From Patescibacteria group bacterium (GTDB taxonomy: Bacteria > Patescibacteriota > Patescibacteriia > 2-12-FULL-60-25), in the NCBI GenBank assembly GCA_052033585.1, contig JBPOJM010000007.1, forward strand, positions 9,187 through 73,186: a stretch of 64,000 nucleotides of DNA, read 5' to 3'. Every line of letters starts with the position of its first letter. The first letter of the stretch is position 1. The notes below the pieces were generated by a model. That model ran no database searches. It worked only from the letters and a program-made list of their open reading frames with translations, and was not told the origin of the DNA. Of this stretch, positions 6,283-41,849 are shown piece by piece. The position numbers and the translations under genes were made by a program.

Positions 6283-6284
6283 AC

Positions 6285-13567: not shown

Positions 13568-14226
13568 CCCATCCCTTCCTGCATTTTCTTCCATATTTTG
13601 GCATGCCCATGCGCCTCGCGCATGCGTTTCACCGCCCGCTGCATCATCTCATGCGTCTCTCCTCGTTCCCCCAATTCCTCCACACGCTTCTGCCAAAATA
13701 CTGCACTCTGCGGCAATCGTTCTCCTAAATACTGATCCCATTCCCCAAACGCATCCTCCATCTCCTGCTGCTTATTCAGAACATTTGTCTTTGCTTCTGT
13801 CGATCCTGCTCCATTTTCTACTCGCTCATCCATAATCACCCCACGCACCCACAACTCTGAACGCACCAATTCCGCGCGTTCTACATCGGTCACCACTTCC
13901 TGACGCACCGCCCGCAACCAATCCCGCCATTCGCGTAATAATTCCGTTGTCGGTGTTTGTACAATGGTGCACCGTTCCACCAATCGCCCCAAGATCATTT
14001 GCTCCATCTCAAGCTCACGTTCCACAACCGCACTTCCATCAAAACGACGAATCCGATCCACCATCGAAAGCAGTTGTTTCTCCGCCTGTCGCATCACCTC
14101 TTCCATGCGCTGAGCTAATGCACGCTGTGCGCTCGCAAGCGCTGCACGACGCGCTTCCACCTTATACGCTGGCACCCCGACGTTCGTCGAGGATGTTTTG
14201 CCTTTAATCCAAGAAAATAAACGCAT
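13564..14226 (-). CDS. hypothetical helical/coiled-coil protein
   Basis: Track ORF 13564..14400. Its first 58 codons overlap the upstream gene out of frame, so the ATG at 14226 ('MRLFSWIKGK'), 4 nt after the upstream stop, is more likely. Confidence 0.55.
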   Translation of the reverse strand: MRLFSWIKGKTSSTNVGVPAYKVEARRAALASAQRALAQRMEEVMRQAEKQLLSMVDRIRRFDGSAVVERELEMEQMILGRLVERCTIVQTPTTELLREWRDWLRAVRQEVVTDVERAELVRSELWVRGVIMDERVENGAGSTEAKTNVLNKQQEMEDAFGEWDQYLGERLPQSAVFWQKRVEELGERGETHEMMQRAVKRMREAHGHAKIWKKMQEGMG

Positions 14227-14230
14227 AAAA

Positions 14231-16606
14231 TTAGCGGACAGCTCCAATACGCTCTTCCAAAACTTGCAAACGCTTCTGAACCGCCGTATTCGTCGGCACA
14301 CTCGCTGCCACCAGACGTAGTTGCGCCAACGCATCCGATAAACGTCCGGATTCCTCATATAAAGATGCAAGCTGCCAACGTGCACGCACCTGGGTTGCAT
14401 CCAATGCTAACACCTTTTCAAACGCCGCGATCGCCCGCGCTGACTGATTGATCTGCATCGCTAAAATCCCCAGCTCAAAAATCCGGTCAGCCGTAGGCTC
14501 CTGCGCTGCAACAGACTCCAAGGCTCGAAAGGCCTCCTCCCCCTTCCCTTGCCGATGGAAGATGACCGCTTCTTGGTACCGAGCAGGCACATAATCAGGC
14601 TTTAACCTCAAGGATGCCTGTGTCCAACGTGCCGCATCTTCCAATGCTTGACGCTCTTGCTGCATCGCTTGCTCTCGCACGCTCGCTTCTTTTGCCTCAA
14701 ACAACACATGAAGTTGCTGCGCACGCAATAAGAACAGTCCTCCAATTTGATACGGATAATCGGGATGCTGTGGATCACGCTGCATCGCTTCTTGATACTG
14801 CTTGATCGAAAATCCATCTGCCCCCTGAGTAAATGAGGCGATTCCGCCATAAATCATCCCCGCGTTTGCCCAACTATCTGAGTTGGCCGGAGCTAAGCGA
14901 GTCGCCTCTAGAGCTACATCCACCATCGCCGTCACTTGTTCACCCACCATCTGCGACCGTTCACTCGTTGAAGCATCTTTCACGCGCTGTAAAACCTGCA
15001 CTAAGTACGCCTGCGCCAATGCACGAGCAGACATATCATCCCAAGGATGAATGGCTCGCACAGCCCGCAAAGCTTCTACGACCTCCTGGGAAGACATCTC
15101 TCCACGTTGATAGGCAGAGACAATCCGCTCCGTCTTTGCCTGCGCCCACCACGTCTGACCACCCAGTACCAGCACCACTAATACTGCAATTGTTATTCCA
15201 AGCGCCTTCATAGGCAAAAGCCATTTCCAAGGTCGACGCATCCCATCCACCATTAAACGCATCTGCGCGGAGAAGCCCATGAGACACCCCGTCAGCGTCC
15301 AAAATATAATTTGGTGTGATAAGTTCATGTTATAGAAAAACAGCCCGACGCTCATCGCAGTCCAACCGCTAAACACAATGATCTGCAAAGGCAACCCTTC
15401 TTCAAATACATCATGTGTATGATGGCCACGTCGTGCCTTGAGAAACCGATACACACCCACCCCAAACACCGCCGCCAAAAAGAGGATGAATAGTCCGCTC
15501 ACTACCATTCCCGTCGTCGCAAACAACGTGAGAAACTGTGAACTAGCACGGTCAAACCGATTCGCCCAAAAGGCGGTGGAATTAAATTGCGGCGCACGAT
15601 ACAAGGCATAATCATAGGCCCATGTCCCTGGTCCCGTTCCCAACCAAGGGTGTGCTGCCACGGTCTGCTGCGTAATCTGCCATGAAGCAGACGTGGACAA
15701 TCCCACCTCTCCTGCCACCGGCGTTTCCCAAGTCATCGGCTTAATCAAATTCACCATCGCCATGACCATAGTCAAAAGGAACCATATTCCCCGCTTTGTT
15801 TTCTTAAAAAGATCTTGTTTTCCAAGCACCATGAAGACCGTAAGACACACAATACCTACAAGCACCATCATCCAGGCCACCCAAAACTGCACGCGCCATA
15901 AAATAACCAGGGAAGCGAGCCATAGAACCCACGCACTGCCTCGCGCCACCATTCCAGGCCAGGCGGTTAAAGAAAACACGCCTTCAAGGCGACGGCCGAA
16001 CATCATCACTCCCAGCGACACAACACTTGCCACACTCGCACACAACGACAAGGCATAAATACTTCCAGCCACCGTCACCACCTCTCCCGAAAACACCGAC
16101 CACATACCCGCTCCAACCACCCCCAAAGATCCGAGTAACAACAAAAATAATAAGGCCGAATATGAAAGGAGCATTCGGACCCGCTGCGCGACCAACCATG
16201 CAAAAATGAGGAGCGCCGCAATACTCGAAAACGTCCAGGCACGTTGACTAAATTGTCCTACCAACGATAAATACGGGTGAGCAGAAAAGATCGTCGCCAA
16301 AAAAATCCCAATACCAAATAATGCGAGAGGAATACTTGTCCATCCCATGCGAACTTCGGAACGACGCTCAAACGCACTCCGTAGTGTTCTAGCCACAAGC
16401 GCAATCCCAACAAGACCAATCAAAACCCCATGCTTAAACAATTCTGCTCGCTCAAAACTCGTAGCCGCCAACCCAGGCACAATCACAATCAGTAACGCCA
16501 AACAAATATCGGTGATAAACGACATCCATCCTCCAATCCGGGTACGCTGGACATTATCCATAAAGAGCAGAAGACCTAGACATAGATACATGCCAGTATA
16601 ACACAA
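14231..16606 (-). CDS. O-antigen ligase/polymerase-like polytopic membrane protein with C-terminal TPR repeats
   Basis: 791 aa with many TM segments, the motif 'AAHPWLGTGPGTWAY' typical of Wzy_C/O-antigen-ligase family proteins, and a TPR-like C-terminal half. Confidence 0.65.
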   Translation of the reverse strand: MCYTGMYLCLGLLLFMDNVQRTRIGGWMSFITDICLALLIVIVPGLAATSFERAELFKHGVLIGLVGIALVARTLRSAFERRSEVRMGWTSIPLALFGIGIFLATIFSAHPYLSLVGQFSQRAWTFSSIAALLIFAWLVAQRVRMLLSYSALLFLLLLGSLGVVGAGMWSVFSGEVVTVAGSIYALSLCASVASVVSLGVMMFGRRLEGVFSLTAWPGMVARGSAWVLWLASLVILWRVQFWVAWMMVLVGIVCLTVFMVLGKQDLFKKTKRGIWFLLTMVMAMVNLIKPMTWETPVAGEVGLSTSASWQITQQTVAAHPWLGTGPGTWAYDYALYRAPQFNSTAFWANRFDRASSQFLTLFATTGMVVSGLFILFLAAVFGVGVYRFLKARRGHHTHDVFEEGLPLQIIVFSGWTAMSVGLFFYNMNLSHQIIFWTLTGCLMGFSAQMRLMVDGMRRPWKWLLPMKALGITIAVLVVLVLGGQTWWAQAKTERIVSAYQRGEMSSQEVVEALRAVRAIHPWDDMSARALAQAYLVQVLQRVKDASTSERSQMVGEQVTAMVDVALEATRLAPANSDSWANAGMIYGGIASFTQGADGFSIKQYQEAMQRDPQHPDYPYQIGGLFLLRAQQLHVLFEAKEASVREQAMQQERQALEDAARWTQASLRLKPDYVPARYQEAVIFHRQGKGEEAFRALESVAAQEPTADRIFELGILAMQINQSARAIAAFEKVLALDATQVRARWQLASLYEESGRLSDALAQLRLVAASVPTNTAVQKRLQVLEERIGAVR

Positions 16607-19766: not shown

Positions 19767-22700
19767 TTATCCCTTCTTTGGCTGCAAAATAATCTTTTCT
19801 GATATCACAGGATTTTTGGCTTGGGTAAGATCAAGATCAGGTGAATGATACGCCTCGTATCCGGCTTTATCCGCCATTAGCATATACACGTTAGGACCGG
19901 CAAAAAACGCATACTTGCCGTCCTTGTCTGTAATCTGGGTCTCCAGTAGTTTATGAAACCGTTTATCAAAAATACGCACCACTGTTTGACCCAGACCTCG
20001 CTTCGAGGAACCATCATAGACAATCCCCCAGTCCTTTGGTTTGGATGCCGCAGCTAAACGATAAAACAACGCAAAAGTAACGACTTGTAGAAGAAAAAAG
20101 CCCCCTGTTAACCATCCAGGCGATAAGATGAGCGACCCCAACGAAGCGACCAAGCCCACACTTGCTCCCACGCGTTGAAAGACACGAAAGCGTTTTTCCG
20201 CCGCCATCTTCTTGGGCGTTTTCTCTACAACTTCATCCGGATCCACCGGAATATTGGCGGCAACGAGCGCTCCACTCTCTTTCACCTCAATTAACTCTCC
20301 ATGATACAGGTCGATAAGCGCACCATCTTCACGGTCATTGGCTAAATACTGAGTCGGAAAACGAAATCCTTGCTTCACCACCTGCAGGCGACATGTCCCT
20401 GGCTTCACAAAAAACGAATACCGTCCCTGTGCATCCGTAATCCGTGTCTGAACCACCCGTCCCGTTCCCGCTTCTACCAAACGAACGATTGCCAAATCAA
20501 CGGGGCGTTTAGACAACGCATTGTAAACCGTTCCCCACTGCGTTCGCTTCCGTCGTCGTAATAAAAGTAATGGTTGCGTAAACAAGAAATACAAATAACG
20601 AAACACACTGGTCGCCGAGGCGGCCGTTGCCAAATTTGTGACGGCAACCGCCACAACGGCAGGCGCAACAACCTGCGTATTCGCCTCTTGCACCGCCGGC
20701 GACTCCAGAATCTCGCGCGCCGCTGCGAGCACCTGCTCAATAGGGGTAGCGACACGAAGCGAAAGTGGAACACCAAGAATATTCCCCTTCACAACAACCT
20801 CCTGATCAAAGGACAGAAATCCTTCTTTACGAACAAATAAACGATACTTCCCAGGCTCCACAAAAAACCCATATTCCCCATCTATGCCCGTAAAAAATGG
20901 ATTCGCCTGTAAAGATGTTTTTACATCCCAGGTAATAAGCCCCTCTGGTGTCTGCCGCATCACCCGAATTTCCGTCCCAGAGGCTGCCTGCTGGCCAGCT
21001 TCCTCCACTACACGAGCGCGCTGCACAAGAGAAAAAGCAGCCTTCGTTCGTGCTCGTGAACCATCCTCCAACCAAGCCTCCACTTGAACTTCTACCCTTC
21101 CCTGAGATGGCAACCGTACCGTCGTTGACCATGCTCCTGTCGCATCCTTCACGAATTGGTAGCGCGTTTCTGCCAATCGCATTTCTACTCGCTCTACACG
21201 CCGCGCTTCAATACGCTCCGGTACAACAACCTTAATAGCCTGCTGAGAAAACGCCTCAAATATTCCATTCACCGACTGAAAGACAAACGAACCACTTTCA
21301 TCCGACCAGATCGGACGCACCTCACGGATGACGCCAAAAAACGGTTCTTCAACGGGTAGTGGCAGTCCTGGCAAAGTAGTCGTCACTCCACTAGGAATCG
21401 ATGGAATGAGTGACTCCCAAGTCTGCGCAGACGCAATTGCTCCACTCGACACATTCCCATTTTGATCACGGGCAAATAGCGCGTAGTAATACGTCTGGCG
21501 CGCTAAAAGCCCGCTATCCACCACCGATTGTGCGGTTCCACGATACACTTCTCTTCCATCAGAGGGACTGGTCGCAAAACGATCATCGCGCGCGATCACA
21601 ATCACCTCAGCAAAGTCCTCTGAGACAGGATTCACCCATTCGAGAGTAACTTGCCCTTCCTGACCAATCGCACGTAAGTCAGATGGATTGGTCGGCGCCG
21701 TGACATCCGACAAGGTGCGTGCCATGATACGACGACTAACCACCTGACTCCCGGCACGAGCTGTAATGCGAAATTGATACAAGGTATCCGGCTGAAGTCC
21801 GTTTACACGCAACGTATGCGTCCGCAAAAGCGTTTCTTCCGACACACGCCAAGGATAATCATCTATCCCATACTCAAGCAGCCCAGAAGCAACACGATCC
21901 GTCTCCCAGGTTAAAACAACTGATCTCTCCTCTAAAGAGACAACGCGCGCTTCACGAAACATGAGCGTCGCGAGCCCCGATCCAGCCGTCGCCCCACCTG
22001 CTCCAGTTCCCCCACTCGTTCCGCCTACTCCACCCGCCACAGCTCCAGCTGATCCCTCTCCTGCCCCAGCCGATGGACCGACTGAAGGAACTGATGGTTC
22101 CGCAGGCGGGGTAACGGGTGGAGGAACAATGGGTGGAGGCGCAGGCTCAGACACCGGCGGAGCCGGTGGCGCAGGAGGTGGCGGCGGTCCAGCCGTCGCC
22201 CCACCTCCACCTGTATCCCCGCCTCCAGTGCTACCTCCACCTGAAGAGGTCGGTGGAACCGTGGCACTCACTGTAAGGACATCATCCGCGATGATGGGAA
22301 TAAGAACGTCTCCCGTATCACCAAATCCTCCGGCAACTGTGACAGCATACGTCGCCACCGTCGAAGGGTTGGTAATTTGCGAAACCCCTCCCGCCGACGT
22401 CCCAATCCGAACAACAACACGATGCCCCGCGACAATCTCACCCGTGGACACATCAGTTGGTGGCGTAAGCGTGATCGTTTGACCGGATATAGCAACTCCC
22501 CACACTCCCGCCGCAGCGCTTGTAGAAAGTATCTCTTGAGTCTCAAAACCTGTCGTGACCCCATGAGTTAGAGCAATATCCGCAACACTAATTGAAGACA
22601 GCGTAAACCCCGCTTCAAAAACAAGCGTCATCGTATCCGAAAGGGACTCTACTCCGGAAACAGTCACGAATTGGATCTCATGGTTAGACGGTAAACCGAT

Positions 22701-22850
22701 CTTTTGACGGGTCATGATATCTTTCACATGTGTCAAAGACGCAGCTTGCACGGATACACCCAAAAAATACAAACAACCGATGCCAAAAAAAATCACCGTC
22801 CGCAAAAAAAGAGACAACCGTAACGTCATCGAAAAGAGATGTGATATCAC
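19767..22850 (-). CDS. large surface protein: signal peptide, Ig/FN3-like regions, Pro/Gly-rich linker, TM segments and CarboxypepD_reg-like domains
   Basis: 1027 aa. It has a 'GGGSTGGGDTGGGGATAGPPPPPAPPAPP' linker, an FN3-like 'VVLTWETD...YQFRITA' and two 'ITDAQGRYSFFVKPG'/'ITDKDGKYAFFAGPN' beta-sandwich motifs separated by hydrophobic helices. Confidence 0.7.
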   Translation of the reverse strand: MISHLFSMTLRLSLFLRTVIFFGIGCLYFLGVSVQAASLTHVKDIMTRQKIGLPSNHEIQFVTVSGVESLSDTMTLVFEAGFTLSSISVADIALTHGVTTGFETQEILSTSAAAGVWGVAISGQTITLTPPTDVSTGEIVAGHRVVVRIGTSAGGVSQITNPSTVATYAVTVAGGFGDTGDVLIPIIADDVLTVSATVPPTSSGGGSTGGGDTGGGGATAGPPPPPAPPAPPVSEPAPPPIVPPPVTPPAEPSVPSVGPSAGAGEGSAGAVAGGVGGTSGGTGAGGATAGSGLATLMFREARVVSLEERSVVLTWETDRVASGLLEYGIDDYPWRVSEETLLRTHTLRVNGLQPDTLYQFRITARAGSQVVSRRIMARTLSDVTAPTNPSDLRAIGQEGQVTLEWVNPVSEDFAEVIVIARDDRFATSPSDGREVYRGTAQSVVDSGLLARQTYYYALFARDQNGNVSSGAIASAQTWESLIPSIPSGVTTTLPGLPLPVEEPFFGVIREVRPIWSDESGSFVFQSVNGIFEAFSQQAIKVVVPERIEARRVERVEMRLAETRYQFVKDATGAWSTTVRLPSQGRVEVQVEAWLEDGSRARTKAAFSLVQRARVVEEAGQQAASGTEIRVMRQTPEGLITWDVKTSLQANPFFTGIDGEYGFFVEPGKYRLFVRKEGFLSFDQEVVVKGNILGVPLSLRVATPIEQVLAAAREILESPAVQEANTQVVAPAVVAVAVTNLATAASATSVFRYLYFLFTQPLLLLRRRKRTQWGTVYNALSKRPVDLAIVRLVEAGTGRVVQTRITDAQGRYSFFVKPGTCRLQVVKQGFRFPTQYLANDREDGALIDLYHGELIEVKESGALVAANIPVDPDEVVEKTPKKMAAEKRFRVFQRVGASVGLVASLGSLILSPGWLTGGFFLLQVVTFALFYRLAAASKPKDWGIVYDGSSKRGLGQTVVRIFDKRFHKLLETQITDKDGKYAFFAGPNVYMLMADKAGYEAYHSPDLDLTQAKNPVISEKIILQPKKG

Positions 22851-22865
22851 CTCTTTTCCAAAACA

Positions 22866-23759
22866 CTACCTTCGCCGCTTTCGTATGAAGATACCCAGAA
22901 AAATAATCCCTCCTAAAACGCCTGCCGACTTCCATGGTAACACAAAAAACCAACCTGCGTCTGCTCTGGCAATAAATGGCTCATCCAGTAAAAGCTCCGC
23001 TCTATACCACCCCACCCCCCAACCATCAATCCAAGCATGTCGCCTAGTGGAAGCGAGAAAAAAACGCCGTTCTGATCGAGGCAAAATACGCGCTACCCGC
23101 TCTGCTGACTGCAGCGAAAAAGACTCTTTAATTTGTCCAAACACATTCTTAATCATTACGCGTCCGCTAGGCACCTCATGCGCCTCACCCCCATTACGCA
23201 ACACAGCCTCAAAACGCGGAGAAAAAGACGCACTCCATCTTGGGGACACACGCTGAAAAGAAGAGATTAGGAGGGATCGCCTTACATCTCCCTCGACAGT
23301 CGCAAACACCAGCACCCCAATCCGACGTCCCAACACCACCCCCTCCATCTGACGAGGATTCACGGGTTCAACAAAGATCACCGCCTGATAGCCTCCCGCC
23401 CCAACCCCTTGTGGCGGACGAAACAAAAACGGCACCGCAACCGTTGCACCAGGCGCTAATGTGACACGCGGAGTCCGTAAATATAACCAACTAGGTAAAC
23501 CCTGCGTGTCGGTCGGCGGTAAAAATACCTGCTGCCCCTGATCCCCTTGGGGCACAAACCCCTGAATACGAAAAACGTACGTCTTTTCCACTAATTCAGT
23601 ATTTTTTAAGAGAAAAACTCCACCCGTTGACTCACCGGCTCGCGCGCTCACTTCTAAAATGGGCGGACGCACTTCCATCGCCTGCGCACTTCTTCCAAGC
23701 AAGACAAAAACGGCGATACCCAGAACCAAAACAATTCTACGCCACCATACAAAGTACAT
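22866..23759 (-). CDS. cell-surface protein resembling DUF916/DUF3324 (CscA-like), C-terminal TM anchor plus KRRR
   Basis: 297 aa with a signal peptide, two beta-rich halves and the C-terminal anchor 'AGVLGGIIFLGIFIRKRRR'. The architecture matches the partner protein of Gram-positive WxL clusters. This is inference. Confidence 0.55.
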   Translation of the reverse strand: MYFVWWRRIVLVLGIAVFVLLGRSAQAMEVRPPILEVSARAGESTGGVFLLKNTELVEKTYVFRIQGFVPQGDQGQQVFLPPTDTQGLPSWLYLRTPRVTLAPGATVAVPFLFRPPQGVGAGGYQAVIFVEPVNPRQMEGVVLGRRIGVLVFATVEGDVRRSLLISSFQRVSPRWSASFSPRFEAVLRNGGEAHEVPSGRVMIKNVFGQIKESFSLQSAERVARILPRSERRFFLASTRRHAWIDGWGVGWYRAELLLDEPFIARADAGWFFVLPWKSAGVLGGIIFLGIFIRKRRR

Positions 23760-23761
23760 AC

Positions 23762-24712
23762 CTAATAGTTCGCCGTTAGGGTGTAATAAAGCGTTTGACT
23801 ATATGATCCGGCCACCGTTGAAGCGGTTGTAGATAGTTTGAACGTCATTCCCACTCTATCCCCCTCATCAGCAGACACCGCTGCACTCTGCCCCACCACA
23901 CGCTGACTAGAAGTCACCGCTATATCCACTCCTGGAGAGAACGCGTGGGTCCCTGTCACACTCATTCCATATTCTTCACTTCCCACCGAGACGGCGCCAT
24001 CAGACACGGAAGCAATCGATGCGCTACCGGAACGAAGAGATCCATCCCCTTGAAGATAGACTGTGTATCCATTTGTCGCACTAGAATCTACAGACACGGC
24101 TGCTAAAGACACATTTTGCGCCCCAGCTGTCACCGTGCCAAACGCAAGCGCAGAACTCTCTAATCGATACACAAAGTCATCCCCGCCCGACGGACTACTA
24201 CTCATACTTGCCTGATCCCCACTCCATCCATCAACAATGATGACATTACTCACGACACTTGTAACACGACCAATCGCAATCAGTTGAGAAAATCCAGCAT
24301 TTTCAACGACACCAATATAGTCACCCGTGGTCACATATCCCGCGGATGACACAGTTACCGTGCGTGCGACGGAGGAAAAACTAGAATAGGTCACCTGCGT
24401 CGCCGATTCTTGAGCACCCAATTGAAAACTCAATCGCTCCGTGGTTGATTCTGCGGCGCGATACCCTGCTCGTAACGCATACAATGCTCCTGTGCTTGTG
24501 CCATCTCCAATACCCCCCAGCGAATCATTAAGTTGATAATTCAAACTAGAGGCAAAATCATCACCGCCAATATTAATCGCATCCCAATTGATTTGGTACG
24601 TGACACTCGACATTCCGAAACCCGGCTGCACTAACAGCAAGAACAACAAAAGGACAAAAGAAACAAATCTCATCATCCTAATCATAACACATACGGACAC
24701 ATGCAACAGCAT
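23762..24712 (-). CDS. secreted protein with WxL-like C-terminus
   Basis: 316 aa with a signal peptide. The C-terminal 'AGSYSQTLYYTLTANY' resembles the terminal G.Y..TL.W.L motif of WxL domains. It lies 2 nt upstream of the DUF916-like gene. Confidence 0.5.
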   Translation of the reverse strand: MLLHVSVCVMIRMMRFVSFVLLLFLLLVQPGFGMSSVTYQINWDAINIGGDDFASSLNYQLNDSLGGIGDGTSTGALYALRAGYRAAESTTERLSFQLGAQESATQVTYSSFSSVARTVTVSSAGYVTTGDYIGVVENAGFSQLIAIGRVTSVVSNVIIVDGWSGDQASMSSSPSGGDDFVYRLESSALAFGTVTAGAQNVSLAAVSVDSSATNGYTVYLQGDGSLRSGSASIASVSDGAVSVGSEEYGMSVTGTHAFSPGVDIAVTSSQRVVGQSAAVSADEGDRVGMTFKLSTTASTVAGSYSQTLYYTLTANY

Positions 24713-24762
24713 CTAACCAAATAGAAGAAAACTATTTGCACAACCATATTCGAGAACACAAG

Positions 24763-24782
24763 ATGTGTCGTAAAATATATAA
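24763..24782 (-). promoter_or_regulatory. conserved promoter-like motif TATATATTTTACGACACAT (copy 1)
   Basis: The minus strand has TTGCAG-17-TATATT followed by a conserved TTACGACACAT, about 50-70 nt upstream of the start of the surface-protein operon (24712). Confidence 0.45.
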
Positions 24783-25788
24783 TGCTGACTAGCATTCTGC
24801 AAACAGTAAACAAAATCAACCCATAATGGGTCGCACAATAATGTTTCACGTGAAACATTCCATCAAAATTCATCCAGAAAAAAGTAAAAAGATCGAACAC
24901 GGCACGAATCCGTTGACAGCAAACACAAACATAAAAAGTACGGCTAAACGTGGTAATGAACTAGAAGAAAATGTTTCACGTGAAACAATACTCAAACTAT
25001 TCTTGAAACAAAGCCACCACTCTCAGGAAGAAGTACGGCAAGCGTCGTATAATAATGTTTCACGTGAAACATTAAGCAGAATCACACGCCTCAGAAATTC
25101 AACCAAGAAGTCGGTAGATACTTCATGTGAAACATCTATCGACAGCCCAAACCGCCAAAATCACTGATATAAACAGATCAAATTAAAGTACGAAAGTAGG
25201 CTGTGTAATGTTTCACGTGAAACATTACACGTCGCAGCACTCAAACAATAGAACAGACGCACTGCCTTAACTGACAAGCGTCGCATAATAATGTTTCACG
25301 TGAAACATTGCGCAAAATGTCGTGCCACAGAAAGTGGGCAAGGAAATCAATGAATGTTTCACGTGAAACATACATTGATAATCTGAGGCATATGAAGCAC
25401 AGAGAAAGACGGATCGATCATATATAAAAAAGAAATAACGTAATGTTTCACGTGAAACATTACGTTACCTAAAATAAGTGATAAATTCAGATCAAAAAAT
25501 TAAATAAACTTTGAGATGAGAAAAATTCATTGTATGGAATGTCAAAAATGTTTCACGTGAAACATTGCTCCATTCTATAAACCTTGTAACTGTAATGTTT
25601 CACGTGAAACATTACAGTTACAAGAAATTACAAGCTACTTAGTATAATCAATCCATTGATTGATATCGCTCAGCTATGCCTCATGCTAGAAAATTCATCA
25701 TATGAGACTCCTTAAGTACTAAAATAATAGAAATGCGGTCAATTGTTTTAGCCATAAACGGATTGCTCTACCATGCAAACATTACATA

Positions 25789-25821
25789 CAAAAAAACAAC
25801 GGCTATTGCGTTGTTTTTTTG
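25789..25821. terminator. terminator hairpin downstream of tRNA-Ala(CGC)
   Basis: caaaaaaacaac-ggctattgc-gttgtttttttg. Confidence 0.6.
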
Positions 25822-25823
25822 TA

Positions 25824-25899
25824 TGGTGGACCGAAGGAGAGTCGAACTCCTGACCTCTGCAATGCGAATGCAGCGCTCTACCAACTGAGCTATCGGCCC
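25824..25899 (-). tRNA. tRNA-Ala (anticodon CGC), CCA encoded
   Basis: The reverse complement GGGCCGATAGCTCAGTTGGTAGAGCGCTGCATTCGCATTGCAGAGGTCAGGAGTTCGACTCTCCTTCGGTCCACCA has the G3:U70 pair and a TTCGCAT anticodon loop. Confidence 0.9.
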
Positions 25900-26120
25900 A
25901 AAATTTTTCAAAATGTTTCACGTGAAACATTGCTCAACTTATAGCACTCGACAGGGGATCTAAGCTAATGTTTCACGTGAAACATTAGCTTATGTACTGT
26001 ATAACACTTTATTCTGAGAATTTGCTGCATTTGCTCAAAAAATCTGACTACCACCATCGACGCATGAGCAATGTTTCACGTGAAACATTAACAAGAATAT
26101 CCCATGAATACCACCAAAAT

Positions 26121-26140
26121 ATGCGTCGTAAAATATATAT
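26121..26140 (-). promoter_or_regulatory. conserved promoter-like motif (copy 2)
   Basis: The minus strand reads TATATATTTTACGACGCAT. It points through three parS sites toward tRNA-Ala(CGC). Confidence 0.4.
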
Positions 26141-26166
26141 CCTTGCCTGAAATGACTGAGGTAGCA

Positions 26167-26241
26167 TGGCGTTCCCAAGTGGAATCGAACCACTATTTAG
26201 GGCTTAGGAGTCCCTCGTTCTATCCATTGAACTATGGGAAC
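26167..26241 (-). tRNA. tRNA-Arg (anticodon CCU), CCA encoded
   Basis: The reverse complement GTTCCCATAGTTCAATGGATAGAACGAGGGACTCCTAAGCCCTAAATAGTGGTTCGATTCCACTTGGGAACGCCA has a CTCCTAA anticodon loop. There is one A.G mismatch at the 31-39 pair. Confidence 0.8.
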
Positions 26242-26260
26242 ATGTGTCGCAAAATATATA
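26242..26260 (-). promoter_or_regulatory. conserved promoter-like motif (copy 3)
   Basis: The minus strand reads TATATATTTTGCGACACAT and ends 1 nt before the mature 5' end of tRNA-Arg. Confidence 0.45.
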
Positions 26261-26569
26261 CGTATGTCTGATGTCAAATCGAGTATAGAGGAGAGAAATC
26301 GCTACGTCAACGAATATGATATATAGAAAACCATTTTCAGCTCAAGATAACCCATCCATTTCGCCAGACATCTTCATAGGAGAAAGCGTGACAACCATCT
26401 ATCATGATTGCGGGCGTTAGGCGCAAGTTTCGATGCATAACCACGATTGAGAACGAAACCTGTACTGCATAGCAAGAGAAATAATCGATTCTTCTCAAAT
26501 AACAGAAGAAACCATCCAACCGCTGTATTGACATTCTTTTCAAAAAACCGTACTCTTGAGGCCAATCCT

Positions 26570-26839
26570 ATGCCAAACAAGCATGCCGCCATTAAAGATT
26601 TGCGTAAGAACAAGCGCCGCGCTGAACGCAACAGCCTTTTGAAGACCCACGTCAAAGCTCTTACCAAGCAAATGAACGAATTGGTCAAAGAAGGTAAGAA
26701 AACAGAAGCCGTTGCTTTAAGCAGCAAATTGCAGCAAATCATTGCGAAAGCCTCAAAGAACAACATCCTCCACGCGAACAAAGCAGGCCGCAAGACATCT
26801 TCCCTTCATCGCAAGCTTAACAAAATGGAAGCAAAATAA
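26570..26839 (+). CDS. rpsT: 30S ribosomal protein S20
   Basis: Inside track ORF 26447..26839. 'MPNKHAAIKDLRKNKRRAERNSLLKTHVKAL...ILHANKAGRKTSSL' is typical of S20. TTGACA-17-TACTCT lies at 26528-26556. Confidence 0.92.
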   Translation: MPNKHAAIKDLRKNKRRAERNSLLKTHVKALTKQMNELVKEGKKTEAVALSSKLQQIIAKASKNNILHANKAGRKTSSLHRKLNKMEAK

Positions 26840-26858
26840 GCTCACCTCTATTTTGCAT

Positions 26859-26888
26859 AAAAAGATCTCCCGCACAGGAGATCTTTTT
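26859..26888. terminator. bidirectional terminator between rpsT and holA
   Basis: aaaaagatctcc-cgcaca-ggagatcttttt. Confidence 0.75.
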
Positions 26889-26906
26889 ATGATACATTTC
26901 TGTAAA

Positions 26907-27749
26907 TCACAAAATCCCCAGCGCATCTTTCTCATCCCCATATCCCGCTCTCTGCACAAAAAACCCTTCGATCAGTTTTGCCAGCGCATCATCCGCGTTT
27001 TCCAAGGGCTGACCCTTCAATTTTCGCACGACAAACGGGTGCAACCCATCGGCCGCTCCGTCTCGCACACGCACTGCCGCACGCGCTTGTGGTAAAAACG
27101 TTGTCAGCACTTGTTTCGTAAGTTCCGACTCTTCCATAATCGCTGCCCAACGGGCATCACCTTTTACATATAACTCCGCAAACGAAAAAATACTTTGTTC
27201 TAATTCAGCATGTATAATGAACTCTCCCTCTGGATACACCGCATATTTCATCAAAGCATAAAAGCAACGCCAGCTATCACCTTCGGTCGCCTCTGAAATC
27301 CGTTTTACGCGGTTAGAATCTTGTATATTTAGCGTCTGTGCCAGTTCTAACGCCCATTCATAAAACGCTTTGCCCTGTAACAACGGGAAATCATAGCGAA
27401 CAATCTTCATCTCCTTTCCTAACTCGTTTAAAACCGTCGCCGTTGGAGGCTCATCCTCAAGCGTTAATAAAATAAACCCCTCTTGATCGCCACTCAACGC
27501 CCGTTTCAAGGTCATTCGCTGTGCTTTAGAAGATTCACCCAACACCTGTGACGTACGCACAAATCTCCGTGGCGCAAACAAACTAACCGCCCCCGCCCGC
27601 GCCGCTACCTCTGTCACCGCCTCTTTCCCGGTCGAAATACGCTCAACCGATATCCCGCTCACATCATACTTCTGCTTAAACGCCACTTCCAACTCGCGCG
27701 CCTTATCAAGCGCCCGAAACGTGTCCGGCCCACTACAAATAATCAACAT
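26907..27749 (-). CDS. holA: DNA polymerase III delta subunit-like protein
   Basis: 280 aa. 'SLFAPRRFV' and 'LHPFVVRKL' resemble conserved HolA motifs. The holA/rpsT neighbourhood matches that in Firmicutes. Confidence 0.6.
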   Translation of the reverse strand: MLIICSGPDTFRALDKARELEVAFKQKYDVSGISVERISTGKEAVTEVAARAGAVSLFAPRRFVRTSQVLGESSKAQRMTLKRALSGDQEGFILLTLEDEPPTATVLNELGKEMKIVRYDFPLLQGKAFYEWALELAQTLNIQDSNRVKRISEATEGDSWRCFYALMKYAVYPEGEFIIHAELEQSIFSFAELYVKGDARWAAIMEESELTKQVLTTFLPQARAAVRVRDGAADGLHPFVVRKLKGQPLENADDALAKLIEGFFVQRAGYGDEKDALGIL

Positions 27750-27820
27750 CGCCCATTACCATAATCTAGAAACGCAAAACGCAAAAGCCCCTGACTCGTA
27801 ACATAAAATCATCTGCCCAG

Positions 27821-28008
27821 CTCCCCTCATCTAAGGCTCGCATGCCTGTGGCTTTTTTATTCCGACAGCTGTCTGAGCAAGGAGATGATGCTGTTGGGGT
27901 CGAGTTGCGGTTGCAGGCTTCGGCTCCGGTCCACCATAAGTACTACAGGTGGAATGCGAGTTCTGTAGGAATAAAAAAGCCACAGGCATGCGAGCCCATC
28001 GCCTAAAT
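27821..28008. repeat. foldback element A1: conserved flanks, 34-bp locus-specific inverted repeats, conserved core
   Basis: IR-left at 27835-27868 (ggctcgcatgcctgtggcttttttattccgacag) pairs with IR-right at 27963-27996 with one mismatch. The core at 27869-27962 is shared with the 33.0 and 42.3 kb copies. The right flank is CATCGCCTA. Confidence 0.8.
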
Positions 28009-28012
28009 AACA

Positions 28013-30709
28013 TTATTCCATCTCCTCCCAATTCAACCCTTTCTTTGTCTCCACCACAATTGGCACCCCCACCTTCTCTACATTCTCCATGGTCTCTTTC
28101 ACAAACTGCGCCACGCGCTCCGCATCTTTCTCAGGGACCTCAAGTACAACTTCATCATGCACCTGCAACAACATCTTCGCCTCTTTACACACCATCGGTA
28201 ATTTTTTATCAATCTCAATCATCGCAAGCTTCATCAAGTCCGCCGCTGTTCCTTGCAGAGGCATATTCACGGCCATACGTTCTGCTTGTGCCCGCAACAT
28301 CGGAATCGAAGACAAAATCTCCGGCATCGGACGCTTTCGTCCAAACAACGTTTCCACGTATCCAAGCTTACGTGCCAACGCTTTCGTCTCTTCAATATAG
28401 GTCCGAAACTGCGCATACACCTGAAAATATTTCTCAATAAAAATCTTCGCTTCCGCGTACGAAATCCCTGCGACACTCGCAAGCCCATGCGCTCCTTGTC
28501 CATACAGAATTCCAAAGTTGATCGTCTTCGCCGTGCGTCGCTGATCACTCGTCACATCTTTCAATGCCACACCCGCAATCTTTGCCGCCGTCGCCCGATG
28601 AATATCCTCACCATGCAAAAACGCATCCGTCATGGCTGGATCTTTAGACAAAGCTGCCGCCAATCGCAATTCAATCTGTGAGTAGTCGCACGAGACCAAG
28701 ACATTTCCCGTGTCCGCAATAAACGCCCGACGAATTCTGCGCCCAGCCCCTGTCTTAATCGGAATATTCTGCAAATTCGGATCCGTAGACGACAACCGTC
28801 CTGTGGCTGCTACCGCTTGGTTATAGGTTGTATGTACGCGCCCCTTTGCATCCGCCAATAATGGCAGCACCTCCACATAAGTCGACAGCAGCTTCGAGAC
28901 TTCGCGGTAGTCCTCAATTTTCTCAATAATCGCATGCTGTCCACGCAGCTTCTCAAGCTCAGAAGCCGCCGTCGAATAGCCGGTTTTCCCTTTCTTTATA
29001 CCCTTCGTCGGCAATGCCAAATCCGTAAAGAGCATTTCCGCAAGTTGCGAAGGAGAAGCGGGATTAAACACACGTCCCACCATCTCCACCATCTCTTTCT
29101 CTAAACGAGATTTATCGGCACTAAATTCCTTCTGCAGAACACCAAGATATTTTCCATCCATCTTAATTCCCACCTCTTCCATCCGCGCCAAGACGGGCAC
29201 AAGCGGCAACTCAAACCGCGCCAAGACGTCCATCAATTGTTGCTTTTCCAGTTCGGCGCGCAGGGGCAGAATCAAGCCCATAACCACCTCTGCCTGCTTG
29301 ATCGGAGCCGCATCCGCCAGTAATGCCGTACCTAAATACCGCTCAGCTAAACTGGCTAAATCATGATTGCGTTCACCCGCTCCTAACAAATACGCCGCCA
29401 ACATCACATCAAACGACCAACGACCCAAATCAAGTTTCAACATCTGCAAACTTTTCACCTGAAGCTTAGCATCATGCGCCAAAAATCCCACCTTCACATC
29501 ATCAAATAGCTGCTGACAGGCATCGTGTATGTTTTTCTCCGCCCGAATCAACGTCGAAGGAATCTCAATCAAACACCCTTCACCTGTCATGAGACCAAAA
29601 ATGACGCTCTCAATGGCCTCTCCAAACAAAGATCCCTGAACCCCACGCGCCACATGCACCATCACCTCTTTTTGCTGATGAAGGCTTTGTAAAAATTCTA
29701 ACGCCTCTTTAGCACGCTCCAAACGTTTCACAGGAACATGCAAAAGAACACCCGTTCGACTACGAGCCGCCTGATGTACATCAGGCTCCATTGGGGATGT
29801 CGGAGACGCATTTTCATCCACGCGCTTGTCTTTTCCTGACATCTGAACCTTACCCACGAGCGACTTAAAGCCCATGCTTCGCAAAAACGTCCGCAACCCT
29901 TCCTGGTCTCGCTCCAATAAGTGCGGTTGCCATACAATCGGCGCATCCGTCACAATCGAAACCAAAGACACAATCGCCGGAATCTCTGATTCCGCTGCTA
30001 ACAACTTCTCGCGTGTAGACTTCGTCAAATCAGACGCTGCATCATGCGCCGCTCGCAAAATACCTTCCATATTCCCAAAGCGCTGCAACAAATCCGTCGC
30101 TCCCTTTTCTCCAATGCCCTTTACTCCTGGAATATTATCCGACGGATCACCACGCATCGCTTTATATTCCAAAAACTGCGCTGGCGTTAACCCAAAGCGC
30201 GCCTTCAACTCAGCTTCGTCATAGGTAAGCGTATCCGACACCCCTTTCTTAAACGTCATCACCGAAATCCCGGGTCGGATAAGCTGAAACGCATCCTTAT
30301 CACCCGTGACAATCACAACCTCCCACCCTTCTGCCTGCGCCCGCACCGCAATCGTCCCCAACAAATCATCCGCTTCATATCCGTCCAGCTCTAACGAATC
30401 CACCCCCAACGTCGCCAATCCCTGCTGAATCAAAGGGATCTGCGCATATAACTCGTCCGGCTGCTCCTCTCGATGTGCCTTATATTCCTTATACGCCTCA
30501 TGCCGAAACGTGGCCGCCTCCGTATCCCAACACGCCACCATCGCTTCAGGCATCTCGTTCTCGAGTAGCTTCATAACGATCATCATCACGCCATACACCG
30601 CATTCACGACCTGCCCCTCCGGATTCGTAAGCGGCGGAAGCGCATGCCAAGCACGATGCAAAAGCGCATTCGCATCCAAAATAAACAAGCGACGAGAAGC
30701 AGAAGACAT
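28013..30709 (-). CDS. polA: DNA polymerase I
   Basis: 898 aa with a 5'-nuclease N-terminus ('LILDANALLHRAWHA') and the family-A polymerase motifs 'DYSQIELRLAA', 'RRTAKTINFGILYG' and 'LLQVHDEVVLE'. Confidence 0.97.
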   Translation of the reverse strand: MSSASRRLFILDANALLHRAWHALPPLTNPEGQVVNAVYGVMMIVMKLLENEMPEAMVACWDTEAATFRHEAYKEYKAHREEQPDELYAQIPLIQQGLATLGVDSLELDGYEADDLLGTIAVRAQAEGWEVVIVTGDKDAFQLIRPGISVMTFKKGVSDTLTYDEAELKARFGLTPAQFLEYKAMRGDPSDNIPGVKGIGEKGATDLLQRFGNMEGILRAAHDAASDLTKSTREKLLAAESEIPAIVSLVSIVTDAPIVWQPHLLERDQEGLRTFLRSMGFKSLVGKVQMSGKDKRVDENASPTSPMEPDVHQAARSRTGVLLHVPVKRLERAKEALEFLQSLHQQKEVMVHVARGVQGSLFGEAIESVIFGLMTGEGCLIEIPSTLIRAEKNIHDACQQLFDDVKVGFLAHDAKLQVKSLQMLKLDLGRWSFDVMLAAYLLGAGERNHDLASLAERYLGTALLADAAPIKQAEVVMGLILPLRAELEKQQLMDVLARFELPLVPVLARMEEVGIKMDGKYLGVLQKEFSADKSRLEKEMVEMVGRVFNPASPSQLAEMLFTDLALPTKGIKKGKTGYSTAASELEKLRGQHAIIEKIEDYREVSKLLSTYVEVLPLLADAKGRVHTTYNQAVAATGRLSSTDPNLQNIPIKTGAGRRIRRAFIADTGNVLVSCDYSQIELRLAAALSKDPAMTDAFLHGEDIHRATAAKIAGVALKDVTSDQRRTAKTINFGILYGQGAHGLASVAGISYAEAKIFIEKYFQVYAQFRTYIEETKALARKLGYVETLFGRKRPMPEILSSIPMLRAQAERMAVNMPLQGTAADLMKLAMIEIDKKLPMVCKEAKMLLQVHDEVVLEVPEKDAERVAQFVKETMENVEKVGVPIVVETKKGLNWEEME

Positions 30710-38654: not shown

Positions 38655-39794
38655 CTACTGACGAATCGGCATCACAATATACTTAAACCCTTCCGCTTTC
38701 TCCGAACTGAGAACCACCGGACTAAATGCGTCAATCATACGAATCGTGACTTGATCCGTCCCAAGCGCCGCTAACCCATCAGACACGTATTTAAAGTTAA
38801 GCGTCACTTTATTCGCTTCTCCTTCCAACTGCCCCTTAAGCACGGTTGTATGCGCCCCCGTCCCAGAATCAGACGAGGAAATACTCAATCCATTCGGGGT
38901 CTTCATTTCAAACAAGACATCATAGATCCCCTGGCGAGCAAACAAGCTTGCGGCTCGAATCGCCTTAGCCAACTCAACACGCTGAACCGTAAACGTCGAC
39001 TTAAACTGTTGTGGAATCAAAGGACGATAATCAGGGAACGACCCCTCGATCAATCGCGACACCAGCTCCACATTCCCATATGAGAATACTAACTGACTCT
39101 CGGTTATCGACCATTCAACAACTTCTGGAACCCCCACATCATCCTTATACGCCGACAGGATGCGCCCAATCTCACCCAGAGCTCTCGCAGGCACAATACA
39201 CCGCGCCGAACGCGTGTTGCCCCCCTGAGACATCGTCACAACGCGCTCAGACAAGCGATATGAATCCGTTGCTGCCATTAAAAGCGTATCCGGACGCTCT
39301 TCGCCATGAAATACGCACGATACACCCGATAATTCCGGTCGCGATTCAGAACTCGACACAGCAAACGCCACCTGCCCAATCGCTTGTTTCAAAAGCTCCG
39401 CCTGAAACCGATACGCACCATCCCGTGCCAATTTTGGGATTAAAGGAAACTCTGTCGCTGGCATCCCTTTAATCGTGGTAACTTTATCATCCGCGCTAAT
39501 TTTAAGCCCCTCTTCTGTAACACTCATCTCAACCTTTCCAGCGGGTAACAAGGATACATAATCCTGTAGCAGCTTGGCTGGCACCGTATACTCCCCGGGC
39601 TGGTCGACACGTCCTCGCACAATCACAGAGACCGCCATTTCCAAATTCGTTGTGCTTAACTTTAAGGTTCCCTCTTCCACCTTCATAAGCACATTTGCCA
39701 AGATTGGAAGGTTGGCGCTCTTCCCCGCAATGTGACCAACTAAAGAAAGGCCTTGCAGAAGATTCTCTTGTGTACAGGCAAAAATCATAATCAT
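38655..39794 (-). CDS. dnaN: DNA polymerase III beta sliding clamp
   Basis: 379 aa. 'LPILANVLMKVEEGTLKLSTTNLEMAV' and the C-terminal '...KYIVMPIRQ' are typical, and it lies directly downstream of dnaA. Confidence 0.95.
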   Translation of the reverse strand: MIMIFACTQENLLQGLSLVGHIAGKSANLPILANVLMKVEEGTLKLSTTNLEMAVSVIVRGRVDQPGEYTVPAKLLQDYVSLLPAGKVEMSVTEEGLKISADDKVTTIKGMPATEFPLIPKLARDGAYRFQAELLKQAIGQVAFAVSSSESRPELSGVSCVFHGEERPDTLLMAATDSYRLSERVVTMSQGGNTRSARCIVPARALGEIGRILSAYKDDVGVPEVVEWSITESQLVFSYGNVELVSRLIEGSFPDYRPLIPQQFKSTFTVQRVELAKAIRAASLFARQGIYDVLFEMKTPNGLSISSSDSGTGAHTTVLKGQLEGEANKVTLNFKYVSDGLAALGTDQVTIRMIDAFSPVVLSSEKAEGFKYIVMPIRQ

Positions 39795-40112: not shown

Positions 40113-41516
40113 CTAAGCGGTAGTGTTATATAACCGCTCTAAAATGAGCGTGATATCCCGCTTCACCTGTGTATCATCCTGGATAAGCTGTGCAATTTTT
40201 TCACACGCATGCATAGCGGTTGTGTGATCGCGTCCACCTAAATGATCCCCAATGGTGGGGAAAGAACATTTTGTTTCCTCACGCAAAAGATACATCGCGA
40301 TTTGGCGCGGTAAAGCAAACCGTTGTTCGCGACTTTTGCCTACGATCTGCTCATGACTAATGTCGTAGTGTCCACGCACCGCCTCAATGAGTAAGCGTGG
40401 GCTTACCGTTCGTTTAGTGATCGTAGGGGTAAAGCTCTGGAGTAGAGGCTGAATCGAGCTCGCGCTTGGCTGAATATTTTTAAACTGGTGGTAGGCGATA
40501 ATCTTGTTGAGTGCGCCTTCAAGCTCGCGGATATTGGATTGAATGGCTCCCGCCATCATGTGCAGGATCTCGGTCGATAGTGGGTAGTTCTTTTCTCGAG
40601 CCTTTGCCTCTAAAATCGCCACACGTGTCTCAAAATCCGGTTTTGTAATATCAATCATCATGCCCCATTCAAAGCGCGACTGAAGGCGGCTTTCTAGGGT
40701 CTGGATATCTTTAGGTGGGCGGTCAGATGCAATCACGATCTGCTTATTGTTCTGGTGGAGGGTATTAAAGGTGTGAAAAAATTCTTCCTGTGTTCCTTCT
40801 TTTCCAGTTAAAAACTGGATATCATCAATCAAAAGCACGTCAACTGTTCGATAACGATCCTTAAAATCCCCTGCGGCTCCGCTGCGCACCGCTTGGATAA
40901 ACTCATTTGTAAACCGTTCACAGGTTACATACTGTACCTTGGCATTTGTATTATCCCGACACACATGGTGCCCAATCGCCTGGAGTAAGTGCGTCTTTCC
41001 CATCCCCACCCCTCCGTAAATAAACAAGGGGTTATATGCTTGTCCCGGCTTCGCTGACACGGCCATACAGGCCGCATGAGCTAATTCATTATTTTTTCCC
41101 ACAATAAACTGTGGAAAGGTGTAGCGAGGGTTAAGTCCAAGATCTGCCGCCCGCGTCGTCGGCTCAAAAGAAGATCCATCCACGCCAGGCGCTTGAAGAG
41201 GGTCGTGTTCCGAATCGGTGGAGGGAGTTGGTTCAGCTAAATGCTCAATCGGGAGCACGGTGGTGTTCCGTACCTCAACACGATAATGGATTTCTCTGAT
41301 CGGCTGTGAACAGGCGGAGCGCAATGCTTTGGCAATCGCGTCATGGTATTTGCGCTCTAGCCAAGATTTTGTAAACGTATTTGGTACAGCCACCACCACC
41401 CGTCCATTTTCGTAGGAACTGATAAAGGTGTTGCGAAACCAGGTGGTAAAATTGGCCTTGGATAAGGTGAGCTCGATCTCACCGAGGGCGGATTGCCAAA
41501 GTGCTTGCAAGTCCAT
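40113..41516 (-). CDS. dnaA: chromosomal replication initiator DnaA
   Basis: 467 aa with Walker A 'GGVGMGKTHLL', 'LLIDDIQFL', sensor motifs and the C-terminal DNA-binding 'LPRQIAMYLLRE...GGRDHTTAMHA'. Confidence 0.97.
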   Translation of the reverse strand: MDLQALWQSALGEIELTLSKANFTTWFRNTFISSYENGRVVVAVPNTFTKSWLERKYHDAIAKALRSACSQPIREIHYRVEVRNTTVLPIEHLAEPTPSTDSEHDPLQAPGVDGSSFEPTTRAADLGLNPRYTFPQFIVGKNNELAHAACMAVSAKPGQAYNPLFIYGGVGMGKTHLLQAIGHHVCRDNTNAKVQYVTCERFTNEFIQAVRSGAAGDFKDRYRTVDVLLIDDIQFLTGKEGTQEEFFHTFNTLHQNNKQIVIASDRPPKDIQTLESRLQSRFEWGMMIDITKPDFETRVAILEAKAREKNYPLSTEILHMMAGAIQSNIRELEGALNKIIAYHQFKNIQPSASSIQPLLQSFTPTITKRTVSPRLLIEAVRGHYDISHEQIVGKSREQRFALPRQIAMYLLREETKCSFPTIGDHLGGRDHTTAMHACEKIAQLIQDDTQVKRDITLILERLYNTTA

Positions 41517-41563
41517 AGGAGTATATGCTGGATACTTTCAATCCTGCATCACATTGTCAAACA

Positions 41564-41601
41564 TGTGGATAACCCGTGGAAAAACCAACAGTTTATCCAC
41601 A
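41564..41601. promoter_or_regulatory. two perfect DnaA boxes (oriC / dnaA promoter region)
   Basis: TGTGGATAA at 41564-41572 and TTATCCACA at 41593-41601, in the dnaA-rpmH divergent intergenic region. Confidence 0.75.
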
Positions 41602-41680
41602 GCTTATCAAAAACCATGGGGATTTTGCGGGGAGAGACCTTGCCAAAACCAAATAAATATCCTAGAGTACTCCCATTCTT

Positions 41681-41845: not shown

Positions 41846-41849
41846 TCCC

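Follow-up and report, generated by a model that had tools for sequence, protein, structure and literature searches.

The 64,000-nucleotide stretch of DNA analysed here (the window; assembly GCA_052033585.1, contig JBPOJM010000007.1, positions 9,187 to 73,186) comes from a Patescibacteria group bacterium and carries, in a single intergenic region, a dense array of parS, the binding site of the chromosome partition protein ParB. We consider it very probable that this array is the origin-proximal chromosomal centromere of a member of the Patescibacteria, a group that also goes by the name of candidate phyla radiation (CPR). It comprises 12 exact copies of the 16-bp palindrome TGTTTCACGTGAAACA within 24842-26087, all of which match the consensus tGTTNCACGTGAAACa of parS in chromosomal ParABS systems, and 11 of the 12 carry the longer 20-mer AATGTTTCACGTGAAACATT. 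As an element the array is familiar, being a chromosomal parS cluster of canonical type, and what is noteworthy about it is its plasmid-like density, its conserved tRNA-associated locus away from parAB and its birth-and-death dynamics. The sites are as follows.

24842-26087, no strand assigned: parS array, with sites starting at 24842, 24972, 25056, 25209, 25292, 25355, 25444, 25549, 25596, 25914, 25969 and 26072
25119-25134, no strand assigned: decayed thirteenth parS, TACTTCATGTGAAACA, with 3 mismatches (13/16 positions kept), the sole addition when the search is extended to 3 mismatches

Successive sites start 130, 84, 153, 83, 63, 89, 105, 47, 318, 55 and 103 bp apart, giving a mean density of approximately one parS per 104 bp, and Tandem Repeats Finder (TRF) detected no tandem period in the array. 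Outside the array the window contains no further match to the 16-mer at up to two mismatches. Dinucleotide-preserving shuffles give a chance expectation of 0.02 matches, none of 100 shuffles reaching 12, and the half-site GTTTCAC is at chance level outside the array (8 matches, compared to approximately 9.4 expected for the whole window). The surrounding region, 24713-26569, lacks any credible coding sequence, its open reading frames being of 113 amino acids at most and reading the repeat as MFHVKH. An initial annotation, made from the sequence alone, had described 12 mismatch-free sites at spacings of 47-318 bp in a region free of credible coding sequence and interpreted them as a centromere; the count, the spacings and the lack of coding sequence were all reproduced here, the generic dispersed repeat that it had named as the alternative fails within the window, and the centromere interpretation is supported by the consensus match, the confinement of the sites, the proximity of dnaA-dnaN, the conservation of the 16-mer among diverged spacers and the parB-adjacent arrays of other bacteria described below. 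The same 12 sites with the same spacing are present in an independent Joint Genome Institute (JGI) assembly (L157, a 44-kb contig), which has zero differences from the window across 23200-29500, array included, and this excludes an assembly artefact.

The array is wrapped around two tRNA genes and flanked by core genes on one side and a secreted-protein operon on the other.

25824-25899, minus strand: tRNA-Ala(CGC) (ARAGORN; Rfam, 69.3 bits), the sole gene inside the array
26167-26241, minus strand: tRNA-Arg(CCU) (ARAGORN, Rfam), 80 bp beyond the outermost parS
25914-26087, no strand assigned: three parS in the tRNA-Arg/tRNA-Ala spacer, starting at 25914, 25969 and 26072
23762-24712, minus strand: first gene of a secreted/surface-protein operon directly downstream of the array, encoding 316 amino acids with a signal peptide and no Pfam match, used as the homology anchor
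26570-26839, plus strand: rpsT, ribosomal protein S20 (PF01649, E = 1e-15), divergent from tRNA-Arg and arranged alike in L097; syntenic flank
26907-27749, minus strand: gene for a 280-amino-acid protein with no Pfam match and a homologue in L097, presumably holA-like, a candidate label judged by eye from the N-terminus alone; syntenic flank
28013-30709, minus strand: polA, 49% identical to its L097 homologue; syntenic flank

Both tRNA genes had been placed inside the array in the initial annotation, which is correct for tRNA-Ala but not for tRNA-Arg. One tRNA gene lies among the sites, and the overlap of a ParB zone with transcription units, which it had pointed out, is normal for chromosomal parS.

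This arrangement is conserved among CPR bacteria. In a first comparison, the window proteins were searched by tblastn against loci obtained from a parS pattern scan, and five CPR loci were found to share the architecture of the window: L097 (Candidatus Uhrbacteria), L026 (Magasanikbacteria), L044 (Parcubacteria group), L033 (Peregrinibacteria) and L040. The order in L097 is polA, the 280-amino-acid homologue, rpsT, tRNA-Arg, two parS, tRNA-Ala, six parS and the 316-amino-acid homologue. L040 (CAZLPD010000014.1) is labelled as an uncultured Gammaproteobacteria bacterium, but the label is doubtful given its synteny with the CPR window and protein identities of up to 70% in the array-flanking operon, and the contig has probably been mis-binned or mislabelled. 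Because these loci had been picked for their parS content, we drew a second, unbiased sample consisting of 31 loci on metagenome contigs with homologues of the 316-amino-acid protein, chosen without regard to parS. About 20 of them include at least 1.3 kb of upstream DNA, and comparison with these relatives places perfect parS at the same locus, together with tRNA-Arg(CCU) and tRNA-Ala(CGC), in about 12, each with 1-11 sites, the remainder being paralogous contexts without the tRNAs. The syntenic metagenome loci contain 10+1, 8, 7, 6+2, 6, 5+1, 5+1, 4, 3, 2+2 and 1+1 sites (perfect plus near-perfect), so the 12 of the window is the highest count in this syntenic family. The spacer between the two tRNA genes always holds one to three parS (L097, L126, L128, L129, L132, L134, L145, L146 and L147).

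The sequence between the sites is not conserved. Spacers are unalignable across lineages and nothing inside the array is shared beyond the 20-mer, while perfect 16-mers persist at the orthologous locus where the 316-amino-acid protein or PolA is only 40-67% identical. This conservation of the sites against fully diverged spacers argues for selection by a protein of canonical ParB specificity. Within the window itself there has been an internal duplication of a 104-nt unit containing two sites (25039-25142 and 25275-25378, 75% identical), after which one parS stayed perfect while the other fell to 13/16 positions; a neutral 16-mer would survive intact at 25% divergence with a probability of approximately 1%. 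These patterns are best read as array dynamics in which sites are born by local duplication and some copies decay, under strong purifying selection on the ParB recognition sequence.

In the mechanism that we propose, one ParB dimer would be loaded at each parS; binding of cytidine triphosphate (CTP) would shut the dimer into a clamp, which would then slide along to neighbouring DNA. The 12 sites would jointly form a single partition complex approximately 14 kb from dnaA, serving ParA-driven segregation and probably SMC loading too. The sites, their confinement, their conservation amid diverged spacers, the synteny and the reproducible assembly are observed, whereas binding by ParB, the loading of clamps and any part in segregation or SMC loading are inferred. 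The locus would be ancestral in CPR, lying around tRNA-Arg(CCU)/tRNA-Ala(CGC), upstream of the secreted-protein operon and away from parAB, with copy numbers of 1 to 12 among relatives arising by local segmental duplication and site decay.

The position of the array relative to replication genes is that of chromosomal parS, which lie in the origin domain; the distance of some 14 kb to dnaA that had been annotated was confirmed.

40113-41516, minus strand: dnaA, 14.0 kb from the last parS
38655-39794, minus strand: dnaN, close to dnaA
41564-41572, minus strand, and 41593-41601, plus strand: two perfect DnaA boxes just upstream of dnaA

In a further CPR locus (L048, Paceibacterota) the parS cluster is approximately 2.6 kb from dnaA.

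Three observations weigh against the array being a centromere. GC skew shows no sign change anywhere in the window, so that origin proximity has to be argued from dnaA-dnaN and the two DnaA boxes. Two or three of the sites abut -10-like elements and several lie in long hairpins, hinting at additional or alternative roles, which are weighed below. Lastly, genes for ParA, ParB and SMC are absent from the window and from all the CPR loci examined. As for the skew profile itself, values are -0.2 to -0.3 up to approximately 39 kb and at or below 0 thereafter, with no sign switch at dnaA, and gene orientation turns from the minus to the plus strand at approximately 42-47 kb.

The density of the array was assessed by scanning a genome collection containing one genome for each of 185,579 species for three perfect parS separated by gaps of 45-75 bp (approximately 190 bp in all). 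The scan returned at least 120 matching stretches across many phyla, those listed including Clostridia, Bacilli, Actinomycetota, Alphaproteobacteria, Planctomycetota, Chloroflexota, Acidobacteriota and many CPR groups. This result suggests that uncultured Firmicutes, CPR and other phyla commonly carry perfect parS in dense arrays. Ten or more perfect sites per 1.25 kb were found at 5 of the 120 matches listed. The window array is therefore in the upper tail of density but is not unique. The packing of its sites had been annotated as exceptional, which is true by comparison with the model organisms, whose parS as summarised in PMC7022226 are far less dense, but is only partly right given how widespread such arrays are in uncultured bacteria, with up to 35 sites in 3.2 kb. 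A full-text search of a paper library found no paper on parS in CPR or Patescibacteria. The largest number of sites belongs to a cultured CPR bacterium, Minisyncoccus archaeiphilus PMX.108 (L117; NZ_AP038758.1, approximately 1.49 Mb), whose 35 perfect parS form a tandem array of a 185-bp unit, 99% identical, at 2739-5934 of the locus within a 3.8-kb non-coding stretch. It is followed at 6183-6320 by a cluster of (A/T)(C/G)TGGACA repeats resembling DnaA boxes (TGTGGATAA), and this array may be adjacent to oriC. In a member of the Clostridiales (L031), 12 sites fit inside 0.47 kb (2092-2564) at a pitch of 41-42 bp, and in L147 the tRNA-Arg/tRNA-Ala spacer contains three perfect parS at a 25-bp pitch (3881-3946), with 9 bp between sites; at both of these pitches adjacent ParB dimers would nearly touch.

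These matches also bear on the link between arrays and ParB. Among the 120 matches listed, 47 of the 108 non-CPR dense-array loci encode a ParB with the GERRxRA motif within the same 8-kb block, one of these proteins being identical to a database protein with PF02195, PF17762 and PF23552, and dense arrays of the 16-mer are thus real ParB-associated centromeres in those bacteria. The corresponding figure for CPR is 0 of 12 loci (L003, L011, L026, L033, L040, L044, L048, L053, L096, L097, L108 and L117; Fisher p = 0.003). Neither ParA nor ParB was found in the window, in agreement with the initial annotation, using Pfam scans of the larger open reading frames, a GERRxRA motif search and tblastn with seven ParBs, and there is accordingly no ParB gene found in the 24 kb on one side of the array or the 38 kb on the other. 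ParB genes were not found in the syntenic metagenome loci by tblastn either. With no ParB gene nearby in any of these CPR loci, the array appears to have been uncoupled from parAB in this group. When 5.8 billion proteins were searched with a ParB profile, the 120 matches listed were all related to the ParBs used as queries, and none of them bore a CPR label. CPR bacteria are nevertheless able to encode ParAB, as the cultured saccharibacterium Southlakia epibionticum has a ParA-type ATPase (SEML1_0183, K03496) and a ParB/RepB/Spo0J protein (SEML1_0184, K03497, PF02195 and PF17762), both classed as growth-defect or essential by transposon sequencing (Tn-seq) according to the entries for these two genes in PMC10633639.

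The closest known counterparts are the parS of characterised chromosomal ParABS systems (the Spo0J sites of B. subtilis, and those of C. crescentus, P. aeruginosa (parS1-4), C. glutamicum, M. xanthus and S. coelicolor), which share the 16-bp consensus and the location in an origin domain near dnaA, occur in multiple copies and overlap transcribed DNA. In these systems parS are spread over kilobases to hundreds of kilobases. The window array differs in its one site per 104 bp, in the perfection of 12/12 sites, in not adjoining parAB and in its setting around a tRNA-Arg/tRNA-Ala unit, a locus kept throughout CPR lineages. In density it is closer to sopC of the F plasmid, which consists of 12 tandem 43-bp repeats, each with an inverted repeat bound by SopB: each packs roughly twelve sites bound by a ParB-family protein into about 1 kb or less, and in both the partition complex could form largely by direct occupancy of multiple sites. 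It is unlike sopC in its irregular spacing of 47-318 bp, its chromosomal consensus, its chromosomal locus with core-gene synteny and the lack of an adjoining partition operon. Regular tandem parS arrays do exist in other genomes, with a 41-42 bp period in L031 and a 185-bp unit in L117.

A broader proposal, which we advance tentatively and think rather unlikely to hold in full, is that the centromere of Patescibacteria is a plasmid-like multi-site array uncoupled from parAB and built into a tRNA unit, with some parS fused to -10 elements or set in long hairpins. ParB occupancy would then be coupled mechanistically to transcription, whether because ParB gates promoters or because RNA polymerase clears ParB clamps away or drives them along. 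In these ultrasmall, protein-poor cells the many sites would be occupied directly, and it is mostly this, and not long-range spreading, that would build the partition complex. A promoter-like motif, TATTTTACGAC(G/A)C, has five copies in the window (0.18 expected), all on the minus strand and all in this intergenic region. Three of these are free-standing and two belong to composites with parS; a third composite is degenerate.

26242-26258, minus strand: first motif copy, TATATTTTGCGACACAT, promoter-like, which stops where mature tRNA-Arg has its 5' end
26121-26137, minus strand: second motif copy, TATATTTTACGACGCAT, located shortly after tRNA-Arg and preceding the three spacer parS and tRNA-Ala
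24763-24779, minus strand: third motif copy, TATATTTTACGACACAT, upstream of the secreted-protein operon, its position kept in L097, L128 and L126
25278-25307, minus strand: composite TGTTTCACGTGAAACA-T-TATTATGCGACGC, in which parS is followed after one base by a -10-like box and the motif core
25042-25071, minus strand: composite of parS and TATTATACGACGC, a duplicate of the 25278-25307 unit
24828-24857, minus strand: degenerate composite of parS and TATTGTGCGACCC, overlapping a terminator-like hairpin at 24817-24833
25785-25825, minus strand: intrinsic-terminator-like hairpin directly 3' of tRNA-Ala (-20.5 kcal/mol, z = -7.8)

This highly conserved motif stops 2-5 nt short of the 5' end of mature tRNA-Arg in L097, L126, L128, L129, L132, L145 and L147, and its positions in relatives include 5112 and 6112 in L097, 4487 in L126, 4649 in L128, 4791 in L145, 3718 in L147 and 1493 in L033. 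No conserved -35 element was seen with it in the window or the relatives, and a scan with the sigma-70 consensus gave five promoter-like matches compared to 6.6 in shuffled sequence, which is not above background, so the assignment as a promoter stands on conserved position and not on a -35/-10 match. On that basis the motif is probably a CPR promoter consisting of a -10 box and the initial transcribed sequence, which would give a near-leaderless tRNA precursor. As there is no terminator between tRNA-Arg and tRNA-Ala, the three spacer parS are probably transcribed within the tRNA precursor, an arrangement that is conserved.

The most serious alternative to a centromere builds on the same motif. 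The sites could be mainly a regulatory operator array, at which a ParB-family protein would gate the tRNA-Arg/tRNA-Ala unit, short non-coding array transcripts or the secreted-protein operon, with segregation secondary or absent. The model would be KorB of plasmid RK2, a ParB-family CTPase that represses at promoter-proximal OB operators, and the likeness is that two or three of the 12 parS directly abut a -10-like element, whose promoter role is itself deduced from the position of the motif. In two strict composites and one degenerate composite, a single base separates parS from a downstream -10-like box to which the core GCGACGC is attached; this core otherwise precedes tRNA-Arg and the operon. 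A ParB positioned at such a composite would be expected to block RNA polymerase. Three composites of this type occur in L040, and two of these have parS on either side, the flanking sites being 41 bp apart. There is also precedent in a chromosomal system, since ParB of P. aeruginosa has been reported to repress genes adjoining intergenic parS (PMC7022226). However, 9-10 of the 12 sites have no adjacent promoter motif, the sites do not have the OB sequence, and the composites are confined to the window lineage and L040, being absent from L126, L128, L097 and other relatives. Two of the three window composites stem from one duplication, and their number may therefore reflect duplication and not selection. 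Given this restriction to two lineages and the part that duplication has played, we retain regulation as a minority reading that is not exclusive of a centromere and, as the principal role of the array, is unlikely.

It is much less probable that the palindromes act as nucleic acid, as repetitive extragenic palindromic (REP)-like elements, terminators, hairpins for pre-tRNA processing or cruciforms, with the match to parS coincidental or secondary. Four of the 12 sites do lie within perfect palindromes of 28-42 nt, with folding energies of -16 to -29 kcal/mol, and two of them are as follows.

25433-25470, minus strand: 32-nt perfect palindrome containing parS, with a U-tract after it as in a terminator (-19.2 kcal/mol, z = -6.8)
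25583-25624, no strand assigned: parS in a 42-nt perfect palindrome, an extension of 13 bp (-29.2 kcal/mol)

The tRNA-Arg/tRNA-Ala spacer holds three of the sites, and at least five extra palindromic base pairs are found at 21 of the 111 parS in 16 syntenic CPR loci, compared to 1.8 expected. However, the invariant portion of the element is exactly the 16-bp ParB site and the extensions vary in sequence among copies; at eight of the 12 sites the stem is only 6-9 bp long, one 8-bp case folding at -7 kcal/mol (z = -1.8). The resemblance to REPs and bacterial interspersed mosaic elements (BIMEs) is that short palindromes, some forming stable hairpins, are repeated in non-coding DNA. REPs are dispersed genome-wide and lineage-specific in sequence, whereas this element is confined to one 1.25-kb region of the 64 kb and its 16-mer is common to many phyla, in some of whose arrays it occurs beside parB genes. 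A REP or a miniature inverted-repeat transposable element (MITE) was rejected on these two grounds. The enrichment in extended palindromes is moreover equally present in non-CPR arrays (55 of 550 parS in loci among L001-L120, compared to 4.4 expected), so extension accompanies parS and does not replace it. Palindrome extension, enriched approximately 10-fold, looks like a general property of dense parS arrays; it could originate in the birth of sites by inverted duplication, in extended ParB contacts or in a hairpin or cruciform function.

We give hardly any credence to the idea that the array arose in assembly or that it served an integrated plasmid or other mobile element as its centromere, as although 12 iterated sites in approximately 1 kb recall plasmid centromeres such as F sopC, and repeats can mislead assemblers, the flanks are core genes (polA, rpsT, tRNAs) whose order is conserved across CPR lineages, Pfam scans found no integrase or partition genes nearby, there is no regular tandem period and the independent assembly carries an identical array.

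Three further identities were considered and rejected. A plasmid-type iterated centromere would not fit the lack of a regular tandem unit (TRF; 47-318 bp spacing), the lack of an adjacent partition operon and the synteny with core genes. Clustered regularly interspaced short palindromic repeat (CRISPR) arrays have a regular repeat-spacer period, repeats of 23-47 nt and cas genes; here there is no period, the conserved unit is 16-20 nt, the gaps are 31-302 bp and Pfam scans found no cas-like genes. A coding region was dismissed because there are only short open reading frames that translate the repeat.

As a centromere, the array would be of interest for several reasons. It is a canonical and very dense set of parS placed at a conserved tRNA locus in several lineages of CPR, which make up a very large and mostly uncultured share of bacterial diversity, and where CPR genomes are fragmented it could serve as a marker of the centromere and origin region, recognisable from sequence. 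A further prediction is that these cells depend on a canonical ParB. The spread of dense arrays qualifies the textbook view of few, scattered parS. Multiple chromosomal parS occur although one would suffice (PMC7022226), and dense arrays are natural material for the question of why chromosomes retain many. Two cultured CPR bacteria offer experimental access, namely Minisyncoccus archaeiphilus with its 35-site array and Southlakia epibionticum, in which ParAB are classed as near-essential.

Reading the minus strand in the direction away from dnaA, the full order at the locus is polA, the 280-amino-acid gene, rpsT (on the opposite strand), the promoter-like motif, tRNA-Arg(CCU), the second motif copy, three parS, tRNA-Ala(CGC), the terminator hairpin, approximately 170 nt free of sites, nine parS and the decayed copy, the third motif copy and the secreted-protein operon. 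Only the two tRNAs exceed Rfam thresholds in the array region, sub-threshold miRNA-type matches there being generic hairpins. The products of the downstream operon are surface proteins and proteins with signal peptides, and fn3 and CarboxypepD_reg domains occur among them.

Exact copies of the DnaN, DnaA, RecA, PolA and PNPase proteins of the window are on record, and proteins that share 90% clusters with window proteins bear the name Patescibacteria group bacterium. Several JGI and Logan metagenomes contain the population too, samples with it including JGI 3300045347, 3300045350, 3300045352 and 3300045354 and SRR34217543. Between L157 and the window, every difference within 23000-28000 falls inside the gene for a 297-amino-acid protein (17 single-nucleotide polymorphisms (SNPs), 23015-23199), with further SNPs in the gene for a 1027-amino-acid surface protein (window 20997-23199 region). 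The surface-protein operon is thus the variable portion of the population, while the 6 kb containing the array is unchanged. The gene with an RNase P protein match (PF00825; window 41549-42307, minus strand; L121 7535-8230) encodes 231 amino acids, approximately twice the usual length of bacterial RnpA. In L122, a phage-integrase gene and an ABC transporter (13682-14851) replace the region of the NAGPA-domain gene downstream of the penicillin-binding protein (PBP) gene, as compared to L121 and L124, an example of strain-level variation via an integrated element within a few kilobases of dnaN.

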